A DNA stretch of 64,000 nucleotides from Azospirillum sp. (lineage in GTDB: Bacteria > Pseudomonadota > Alphaproteobacteria > CACIAM-22H2), in the NCBI GenBank assembly GCA_020249045.1, contig JADCGK010000015.1:4944-68943 (forward strand). The letters run 5' to 3'. The notes beneath the pieces were generated by a model. The model did not search any database. It saw only the letters and a program-made list of their open reading frames with translations, and was not told the DNA's origin. Below, one piece after another: positions 23,010-24,789 of the stretch; positions within the stretch are counted from its first letter, which is position 1; the number at the start of each line of letters is the position of its first letter. The position numbers and the translations under genes are program-made.

Positions 23010-23636
23010 ATGCCCGACCTGACGCGCGAACGGCGGATCGCGGGGCCCGTGGCGGGGGTGGACGAAGCCGGCCGCGGCCCGTTGGCGGGGCCCGTGCTCG
23101 CCGCCGCCTTGGTTTTCCGCGACGCCAAGCTCCCGCGCACGCTGGAAGGATTGATCGACGATTCCAAAAAGCTGAGTGCGGCGGCGCGCGCGCGCGCCTT
23201 CGACGAAATCCGCGCCCAGAAGCTCGTCGGCACGCTCGACTTCGCGATCGCCGCGGCGAGCGTGGCGGAGATCGACGCGCGCAACATCCTCGCGGCCACG
23301 CATTTGGCCATGACCCGAGCGCTCGCCCGGCTGCGCGTGCGGCCCGCGCACGCGCTGATCGACGGCAATCGCGCGCCCAAGGGGTTGGCGCTCGCGCATA
23401 CTTGCGTGGTCGGCGGCGACGCGCGAAGCCTGTCGATCGCCGCGGCATCGATCTGCGCCAAAGTCGTCCGCGACCGGATCATGGCACGCCTCGACGCGCG
23501 CTATCCGCACTACGGCTGGGCGTCCAACAAAGGCTATGGCGCCAAAGCGCACATCGAATCCCTTGTGGTCCACGGACCGTCGCCCCACCACCGATTGAGT
23601 TTTGCGCCCCTCGCGCAGGGCCGTCTAAGCCTTTGA
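23010..23636 (+). CDS. rnhB: Ribonuclease HII
   Basis: …GVDEAGRGPLAGPV… and …LIDDSKKLS… are RNase HII catalytic motifs, in a 208-aa protein. Confidence 0.9.
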   Translation: MPDLTRERRIAGPVAGVDEAGRGPLAGPVLAAALVFRDAKLPRTLEGLIDDSKKLSAAARARAFDEIRAQKLVGTLDFAIAAASVAEIDARNILAATHLAMTRALARLRVRPAHALIDGNRAPKGLALAHTCVVGGDARSLSIAAASICAKVVRDRIMARLDARYPHYGWASNKGYGAKAHIESLVVHGPSPHHRLSFAPLAQGRLSL

Positions 23637-23676
23637 TTCGTTTATCTGTTGACCGTTCGACTCGGGGGGATTCAGG

Positions 23677-24789
23677 ATGCGCCCCATGTCGAAACACACG
23701 CCCCGCATCGAATTTCCCGAAGGCCAGATCGCGATCGGCGATTGCCTTCAGCTGTTGAAGTCGCTGCCCGAAGCGTCGGTGGACATGGTCTTCGCCGACC
23801 CGCCCTACAATCTGATGCTCAAGGGCGAACTCGTGCGGCCGAACAACACCAAAGTCGACGCCGTCGACGACGCGTGGGACAAGATCGGCGACTTCAAGGC
23901 CTACGACGAGTTCACGCATGCGTGGCTTTCGGCCGCGCGCCGCGCGTTGAAGCCCGACGGTGCCATCTGGGTCATCGGCAGCTACCACAACATCTTCCGC
24001 GTGGGCGCCACGCTGCAGGATCTCGGGTTCTGGATCCTCAACGACATCGTCTGGCGCAAGACCAATCCGATGCCCAATTTCCGGGGCCGGCGCTTCACCA
24101 ACGCGCACGAAACGATGATCTGGGCGGCGAAGTCGGAGAAGTCGAAATACGTCTTCAACTACGAGGCCATGAAGTCGCTGAACGAGGAACTGCAGATGCG
24201 TTCGGATTGGTTGTTGCCGATCTGCGGTGGTTCGGAGCGGTTGAAGGGCGCCGACGGCAAGAAAGTCCACCCGACCCAAAAGCCCGAGTCTCTGGTCTAC
24301 CGTGCGGTGCTGTCCTCGACCCGGCCGGGGGATACGGTGCTCGACCCGTTCTTCGGCACGGGCACGACGGGGGCCGTGGCCAAGCGCCTGGGGCGCAAAT
24401 TCGTCGGCATCGAGCGCGAACTCGCCTATGTCGAAGCCGCCGAGAAGCGCATCCGCGAGACGATCCCCGACGATCCCGAGTTTCTGGCCGCCATCCCCAA
24501 ACGCGAGGAACCGCGAATTCCGTTCGGCTGGCTGGTCGAGCGCGGCCTCTTGCGGTCGGGCGAAGTCCTGAGCGACATTAGCGGCCGTTGGACCGCGCGC
24601 GTGAAGGCCGACGGGACGCTGGTGGCCTCCACCGCGACCGGCGACCATCGCGGATCGATCCATCGGGTGGGTGCCGCCGTCATGGGCGCGCCCGCCTGCA
24701 ACGGCTGGACGTTCTGGTGCGTCAATCTCGACGGGCGCAAAGTGCCGCTCGACACGCTGCGCCAGAAACTCCGCGCCGAACTCAACTGA
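23677..24789 (+). CDS. ccrM: Cell-cycle-regulated DNA adenine methyltransferase CcrM (GANTC-specific, beta-class N6-MTase)
   Basis: High similarity to CcrM (…[12 protein letters not shown]…[15 protein letters not shown]…[15 protein letters not shown]…HPTQKPESL…). The true start may be at [10 protein letters not shown] (23686). Confidence 0.9.

Follow-up and report, generated by a model that had tools for sequence, protein, structure and literature searches.

CcrM, a GANTC-specific N6-adenine DNA methyltransferase, is limited in Caulobacter to a short part of the cell cycle, and the usual explanation combines CtrA activation of its gene with proteolysis of the enzyme by Lon. Many alphaproteobacteria, Rhodobacterales and Rhodospirillales included, do not rely on CtrA for cell-cycle control. 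Work of Stephens, Zweiger and Shapiro from 1995 is said to have located two methylation sites 3' of the Caulobacter ccrM promoter. The gene is activated from a hemimethylated chromosome only (PMC2217572), and there is further literature precedent for methylation feedback on ccrM (PMC3973325, PMC2217572, bioRxiv 10.64898/2026.05.23.720832). GANTC sites in a ccrM promoter subject to methylation feedback are thus already known, as are GANTC-sensitive sigma-70 promoters, and a survey by Brilli et al. (2010) tallied the GANTC sites preceding cell-cycle genes in alphaproteobacteria, drawing no conclusion. The locus considered here is the ccrM gene in a 64,000-nucleotide stretch of Azospirillum sp. 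DNA (contig JADCGK010000015.1; the whole stretch is called the window), which is preceded by three closely spaced GANTC sites. On the comparisons below it is fairly probable that these CcrM target sites are built into the gene's own sigma-70-type core promoter, and that sensing of their methylation state closes a replication-coupled negative feedback loop without a CtrA box.

The ccrM coding sequence lies on the plus strand at 23686-24789, within a longest open reading frame that begins at 23677. Its product aligns with Caulobacter CcrM in the PDB entry 6pbd (E 1.9e-155, query residues 9-370 to chain residues 7-366) and matches the Pfam families N6_N4_Mtase (PF01555, 221 bits) and RAMA (PF18755, 56 bits). 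By these matches it is a full-length CcrM orthologue, C-terminal domain included. It presumably methylates GANTC, given this orthology and the conservation of GANTC at its own promoter. Upstream on the same strand is rnhB, encoding RNase HII (22998-23636, with an approximate start coordinate), whose product scores 225 bits against NCBIfam NF000595 (cut-off 167) and also matched Pfam RNase_HII. A preliminary description of the window had named these two flanking genes, and the profile and structure-database matches agree with it.

The same description placed three GANTC sites between the genes, and the sequence confirms GATTC at 23635-23639 (site 1), GACTC at 23659-23663 (site 2) and GATTC at 23669-23673 (site 3), all in the 40-bp region of the rnhB-ccrM gap. 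They are predicted to lie within a sigma-70-type core promoter rather than in a leader, because they surround and fill a -35/-10 pair. The predicted -35 hexamer is TTGACC (23649-23654, plus strand), and the predicted -10 hexamer, CAGGAT, follows after 18 nt (23673-23678, plus strand); together they would form the active ccrM promoter. Positions are counted here from a predicted +1 at 23686. Site 1 (tGATTCg), which is overlapped by the rnhB stop codon TGA (23634-23636), has its centre at about -49 and precedes the -35 hexamer by 9 nt, at a place where UP elements are located. Site 2 (cGACTCg) falls in the -35/-10 spacer with its centre at about -25, and is separated by 5 nt from site 3 (gGATTCa), which is centred at about -15 and whose final C also opens the -10 hexamer. 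The stretch GCGCCCC (23679-23685) fills the interval between the -10 hexamer and an ATG.

This arrangement bears on the start of the coding sequence. The first ATG of the long open reading frame, at 23677, falls within the -10 hexamer, and the preliminary description had implied that translation begins there. In L001, one of the two closest relatives in the genome set described below, the equivalent ATG (within CAGGATG) is out of frame with ccrM, so the conserved and probably true start is the second ATG, at 23686-23688, and it is this codon that annotation of the window clade should use. It begins 7 nt past the -10 hexamer. The usual distance from a -10 hexamer to the transcription start is 6-8 nt. 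In 12 loci and the window an in-frame ATG stands 6-8 nt past the -10 hexamer, and elsewhere the distance is at least 22 nt, except in L140 (11 nt). Because the ATG occupies the position expected of the transcription start, the ccrM mRNA of the window clade is probably leaderless, with its predicted start at 23686. The recurrence of this spacing in 12 loci and the window also lends the -10 assignment independent support.

The strongest evidence that the sites matter comes from other ccrM loci. The genome set consisted of 80 species-level loci (L001-L080) from species-representative genomes, among them Rhodospirillales, Rhodobacterales, Micavibrio, Dongiaceae, Azospirillum and Reyranella. A Tagaea metagenome-assembled genome, at 83% identity, and a second such genome, at 82%, are the closest. 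Across the 80 loci, GANTC density is 41 per kb at -100 to -50 relative to ccrM and 15 per kb at -50 to 0, against 1.9 per kb overall. At least three GANTC sites occur in the 200 bp upstream of ccrM in 82% of 78 loci, compared with 0.7% of 2,465 background windows. A further 80 metagenome loci (L081-L160) were collected with the C. crescentus CcrM sequence, rebuilt from the 6pbd alignment, as query; in this Caulobacter-like set 68% have at least two GANTC upstream of ccrM, compared with 2% of background.

The sites recur not only in number but in position. Of 81 sequences, 67 have a layout of TTGACN, 2-4 nt, GANTC, 4-7 nt and a second GANTC (66 of the 80 loci when the window is left out), with TTGACN at the place of the window's -35 hexamer. 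Dongia deserti (L005), Azospirillum (L029), Paracoccus (L033) and Roseovarius nubinhibens (L027) are cultured organisms with this layout. A-N3-T comes directly after the second GANTC in every one of the 67 and makes CANNNT with the site's own C, so that the methyltransferase target overlaps a core promoter hexamer in every sequence with the layout. The spacer between TTGACN and CANNNT is 17 nt in 79 of the 83 sequences in which it was measured and 18 nt in the other 4. A spacing of 17-18 nt is optimal for sigma-70. Of the 67 sequences with the layout, 57 have a third GANTC no more than 30 nt before TTGAC, in most of them at 9-11 nt. This outer site is retained in lineages where rnhB stops further upstream, so its retention is not due to coding constraint. 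In Rhodobacterales the stretch between site 1 and TTGAC is occupied by an A-tract, AAAAAAGAA, which presumably resembles an UP element.

What has been conserved within this layout is the target itself. In the base-by-base alignment of 71 sequences, information between the sites is low (0.2-0.6 bits per position). Nearly every locus preserves GA and TC, whereas drift has affected the central base, the flanking bases and the spacing. The same is seen at short range: compared with its closest relatives, L001 and L002, the window differs in central N, flanks and spacing and retains GA and TC, and the spacer, gttcGACTCgggggGATTC in the window and cggGAATCcgcattGACTC in L001, has been rewritten with both GANTC sites kept. 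Selection on the CcrM target would produce such a pattern. The offset of site 3 to the -10 hexamer is invariant, whereas the spacing between sites 2 and 3 ranges from N4 to N7, which suggests that the sites act together with -10 recognition; a rigid dimeric protein on sites 2 and 3 was considered and is disfavoured on this account. Replication across species places the cluster beyond chance. The earlier view of the sites as functional cis elements tied to ccrM is upheld by the enrichment and the fixed positions; the location assigned to them, in the leader, gives way to one around and within the predicted -35/-10 pair.

Two further conserved features were noted around these sites. About 6 nt upstream of site 1 (window positions near 23627-23629, -58/-57) stands a TAA that is conserved across orders, with A in 56-60 of 71 sequences; it differs from the rnhB stop codon in the window and in the Rhodobacterales loci inspected. 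A second GANTC peak occurs inside rnhB, at about -600 to -550 from ccrM (57 sites in 78 loci, 14.6 per kb). Its counterpart in the window, 23160-23164, corresponds to the Asp-Ser codons (GAT TCG) of a DDSK motif, and this peak looks like a by-product of coding rather than a regulatory site.

Several observations weigh against the proposal of a self-methylated core promoter. The counts overstate the number of independent observations, since the loci share ancestry and more than half are from Rhodobacterales. The product of ccrM scores 591.8 bits against the NCBIfam CcrM equivalog NF050803, below the cut-off of 830, and for this reason its GANTC specificity is drawn from similarity at the level of the 6pbd match; NF050803 is still its best family match by far, and the threshold appears to be tuned to Caulobacter-like sequences. 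A strict sigma-70 scan lists no promoter in the region upstream of ccrM, because CAGGAT fits TATAAT at only 3 of 6 positions. If transcription reads through from rnhB, the AGGA at 23674-23677 could instead act as the Shine-Dalgarno sequence of the ATG at 23686, and the terminator scan found no convincing rnhB terminator. Sequence does not reveal the sign of regulation, and the effect of GANTC in the Caulobacter ccrM promoter has been termed "minor" (bioRxiv 10.1101/2024.03.01.583015).

Other readings of the intergenic region itself were also pursued. A terminator-like hairpin at 23617-23633 was set aside as weak, since two such hairpins were found against 1.1 expected in shuffles, which is not above chance. 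A scan of 22800-24200 against Rfam, with E values up to 1, gave no match to a known leader RNA or riboswitch.

If the self-methylated core promoter operates as proposed, its activity would be coupled to methylation state because the gene's own product methylates the promoter sites. Passage of the replication fork would leave the sites hemimethylated and the ccrM promoter able to fire; CcrM would then re-methylate them, and the promoter would be turned down. The methylated adenines at about -16 and -14 and those in site 2 would sit on the polymerase-facing side of the helix, which makes a direct action of methylation on holoenzyme binding or DNA melting the simplest mechanism, one to which GcrA may contribute. 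Full methylation would presumably lower transcription: negative feedback is favoured by the Caulobacter precedent, by homeostasis and by the invariant offset between site 3 and the -10 hexamer.

A different sign would follow if ccrM were a target of GcrA. The sigma-70 cofactor GcrA would bind the fully methylated or hemimethylated sites, stimulate open-complex formation and turn ccrM on in S phase, which would make the link a positive or feed-forward one. The class of promoter is right, as GcrA activates sigma-70-type promoters with GANTC in the -35/-10 spacer (PMC4647560, PMC9976885), and almost all Alphaproteobacteria have kept both CcrM and GcrA. Site 1, TGATTCG, is the top GcrA consensus, and the lower strand of site 2, CGAGTCG, fits YGAKTCK, as it mostly does across loci (C at -28 in 61, central K in 58 and Y in 54 of 71 sequences). 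Site 3, GGATTCA, fits the consensus in neither orientation, however, and agreement of two sites out of three has an estimated chance probability of about 0.12. The positions fit less well. Known GcrA boxes have their centres at -20 ± 1, -30 ± 2 or +5 to +30, whereas those of the window lie at about -15, -25 and -49, half a helical turn off the preferred positions if the predicted start is correct. The known positions have been explained by GcrA sitting opposite the polymerase. By the same predicted start, sites centred at -15 and -25 would lie on the polymerase side, an orientation compatible with direct sensing or with steric interference. Moreover, positive feedback alone would not confine CcrM to a pulse, and the part of the GcrA literature covered yielded no report of ccrM as a target. 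Control of the promoter by GcrA activation is rather unlikely, although it is the main rival.

It is improbable that the sites serve some other sequence-specific protein, such as a reader of TGANTCA, or CcrM itself as a steric repressor, with methylation incidental. Such a protein would account for the T found 5' of site 3 in 65 of 71 sequences and the A that always follows it, which together make a palindromic TGANTCA, and for the usual 11-bp distance between the centres of sites 2 and 3, which puts both on one face of the helix. The A, however, is accounted for by the -10 hexamer. Exactly GA-N-TC forms the conserved core, and the flanks vary; the central base is free, being C in 51, A in 18 and T in 2 sequences at site 3 and any of the four bases at site 2; and the spacing between these sites varies as described. 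A binder of this kind would also hardly explain why two distinct promoter architectures both carry the very motif that the gene's own product targets.

The second of these architectures is that of Caulobacter. L081 and L082 encode proteins 98% identical to C. crescentus CcrM, and their upstream regions read GAGTC-N6-GACTC, TTAAC-N6-CTAACC (the CtrA box), TTACCA, GACTCatGATTC, about 30 nt and the ATG. Other Caulobacterales-like loci have full or half CtrA sites followed by one or two GANTC, and CtrA boxes are present in L081-L132, in agreement with the CtrA and SciP motifs reported for ccrM (PMC4287350). Applied to the window, this precedent would place a CtrA-activated promoter further upstream, inside rnhB, and the three sites in a transcribed leader. 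It is very improbable here, for all its presence in loci so close to C. crescentus and its support in the literature. The CtrA box TTAA-N7-TTAA has no match with up to one mismatch anywhere in the 64 kb, and neither a box nor a TTAACCAT half-site was seen by eye in 23560-23690; a CtrA-driven promoter at this locus was rejected on that search. The sites are also interleaved with the conserved TTGAC/CANNNT pair at 17-18 nt, and 13 sequences, the window among them, have an in-frame ATG 6-8 nt past the -10 hexamer. The preliminary description had suggested the same methylation-coupled autoregulation as in Caulobacter, with a CtrA-box variant to be sought nearby. No box with up to one mismatch is in the window, and the Caulobacter-like loci differ from it in having a CtrA box with GANTC downstream. 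Judged by sequence, ccrM has two promoter architectures with adjacent GANTC as their common denominator, and that of the window is of the sigma-70 type and independent of CtrA.

A functionless cluster that arose by chance in an AT-richer intergenic gap can be dismissed almost outright, the same cluster occurring at the same position in dozens of species from several orders, which effectively refutes it. Within the window alone the matter is less clear. The window holds 94 GANTC (1.47 per kb), at 2.5 per kb in non-coding and 1.24 per kb in coding sequence by a crude gene map. The triplet upstream of ccrM, spanning 39 bp, is the tightest, ahead of triplets of 108 and 111 bp, and three sites in the 40-bp gap amount to about 30 times the non-coding density. 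A 40-bp stretch would be expected to hold 0.06 sites at the density of the whole window, 0.10 at that of non-coding sequence and about 0.15 on local base composition, the figure given in the preliminary description; from the non-coding rate, the Poisson probability of at least three in this particular gap is about 2e-4. The next densest intergenic gap has 3 sites in 287 bp, so a comparable density is not a general feature of intergenic regions in the window, and the composite TTGAC-N-GANTC-N-GANTC occurs once against 0.08 expected. Yet about 10% of uniform simulations of 64 kb produce an equally tight triplet at some position, which makes the clustering by itself weak evidence. The other clusters are far sparser (10138-10244, 37521-37646, 49418-49432 and 57058-57206), and the genes beside them are metabolic, transport or unannotated, none of them a cell-cycle gene. 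A possible mark of CcrM, the depletion of GANTC to 94 sites where dinucleotide shuffles give 307, was set aside as unspecific, since palindromic pentamers of the same composition number 25 to 137, a range in which 94 is ordinary.

The two architectures may be related by descent. In the Micavibrio-like loci L035, L040, L044, L045, L058 and L072 the -10 region is GANTCATGATTC, with a fourth GANTC overlapping the -10 hexamer, and its 12-mer theme is that of the GACTCatGATTC pair upstream of Caulobacter-like ccrM genes (L081-L086). This hints that the GANTC pair of Caulobacter may be the remnant of a sigma-70-type promoter. A broader proposal, offered only tentatively, is that the three-site promoter (GANTC, the UP-element zone, TTGAC, GANTC, and GANTC fused to the -10 hexamer, often leaderless) is a widespread and possibly ancestral alphaproteobacterial design for ccrM in which RNA polymerase would read methylation directly, and that the CtrA-driven Caulobacter promoter is a derived rewiring that kept only the GANTC pair. 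Were this so, the methyltransferase would be pulsed once per replication round without CtrA.

Some loci have additional elements in or near the promoter. Perfect DnaA boxes (TTATCCACA or TGTGGATAA) are found in or beside the ccrM promoter or leader of several Rhodobacterales, Micavibrio and unassigned loci (L010, L020, L024-L026, L035, L133, L135, L152, L156, L158 and L160), just downstream of the promoter or between GANTC sites; none was seen in the ccrM promoter of the window. Brilli (2010) reported DnaA motifs on ccrM where CtrA boxes are lacking, and these loci fit that report. In Rhodobacterales (loci within L016-L080) ccrM has a predicted leader of about 30-60 nt with a short conserved stem-loop at about +15 to +35, for example GAGCGC-AAAA-GCGCC, GAGTGCA-CAA-TGCAC or GAGACCA..TGGTC, followed by a Shine-Dalgarno-like GAGGCAGA. 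Compensatory changes occur at 3 of 4 predicted pairs in 17 sequences, and the stem-loop is absent from the leaderless window clade.

The gene neighborhood is conserved to different extents. In 77 of 78 genome-set loci the fetched flank includes an rnhB gene upstream of ccrM and co-oriented with it; in the C. crescentus-like L081 and L082 the two genes are direct neighbours. Divergent from rnhB-ccrM in the window is a trcR homologue (TrcR/DUF1013, Pfam PF06242, 207 bits) at 22223-22933 on the minus strand. TrcR has been described as an RNA-polymerase-associated cell-cycle factor in Caulobacter (PMC12864828), and among the loci examined a trcR homologue near ccrM was found only in the closest relatives, L001 and L002. 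Downstream, a 406-bp gap (24790-25195) separates ccrM from a convergent gene for a MurR/RpiR regulator (25196-26182, minus strand). It holds two GANTC sites (25055 and 25184) and a possible small plus-strand open reading frame, beginning MPEPRLPS..., inside the listed frame 24671-25192.

In the part of the literature that was covered, no prior description was found of the fixed three-site layout in a sigma-70 core promoter, its breadth across orders, its lack of a CtrA box or its leaderless arrangement. Nor, in the same partial coverage, was the timing or limitation of CcrM found to be addressed for alphaproteobacteria that do not rely on CtrA. Placing the enzyme's own target sites at fixed positions in its core promoter would be a simple answer that needs no dedicated factor: each round of replication would reset the promoter, and CcrM would then shut off its own synthesis. 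A compact natural promoter responsive to methylation could also serve synthetic epigenetic circuits built around CcrM (PMC5458116, PMC9295699).

Of the systems described, GcrA-activated promoters such as PcsM, mipZ and ctrA P1 (Haakonsen 2015, PMC4647560; Wu 2023, PMC9976885) share with the window a sigma-70-type promoter with GANTC in the spacer, and two of the three window sites fit their YGAKTCK consensus; they differ in the predicted position of the site centres and in having mostly one box instead of three sites. The ccrM gene of Caulobacter resembles that of the window in carrying GANTC directly before the gene whose product methylates it, conserved in relatives, in the proposed coupling of ccrM transcription to the methylation and replication state of its own promoter, and in its upstream neighbour, rnhB (in L081). 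The Caulobacter promoter, however, is driven by CtrA and has two sites, GACTCatGATTC, downstream of the CtrA box and about 30 nt before the ATG, whereas the three sites of the window flank and fill a sigma-70 -35/-10 pair without a CtrA box, and the mRNA is probably leaderless. A third parallel comes from gammaproteobacteria, where the IS10 transposase promoter pIN has GATC in its -10 region and is active when hemimethylated. As in the window, the methyltransferase target of such Dam-sensitive promoters overlaps a core promoter hexamer, and passage of the fork transiently alters promoter strength with no dedicated transcription factor. The enzyme and its site are Dam and GATC rather than CcrM and GANTC, and the gene regulated by Dam does not encode the methyltransferase, so the loop that the ccrM promoter of the window would close stays open there.

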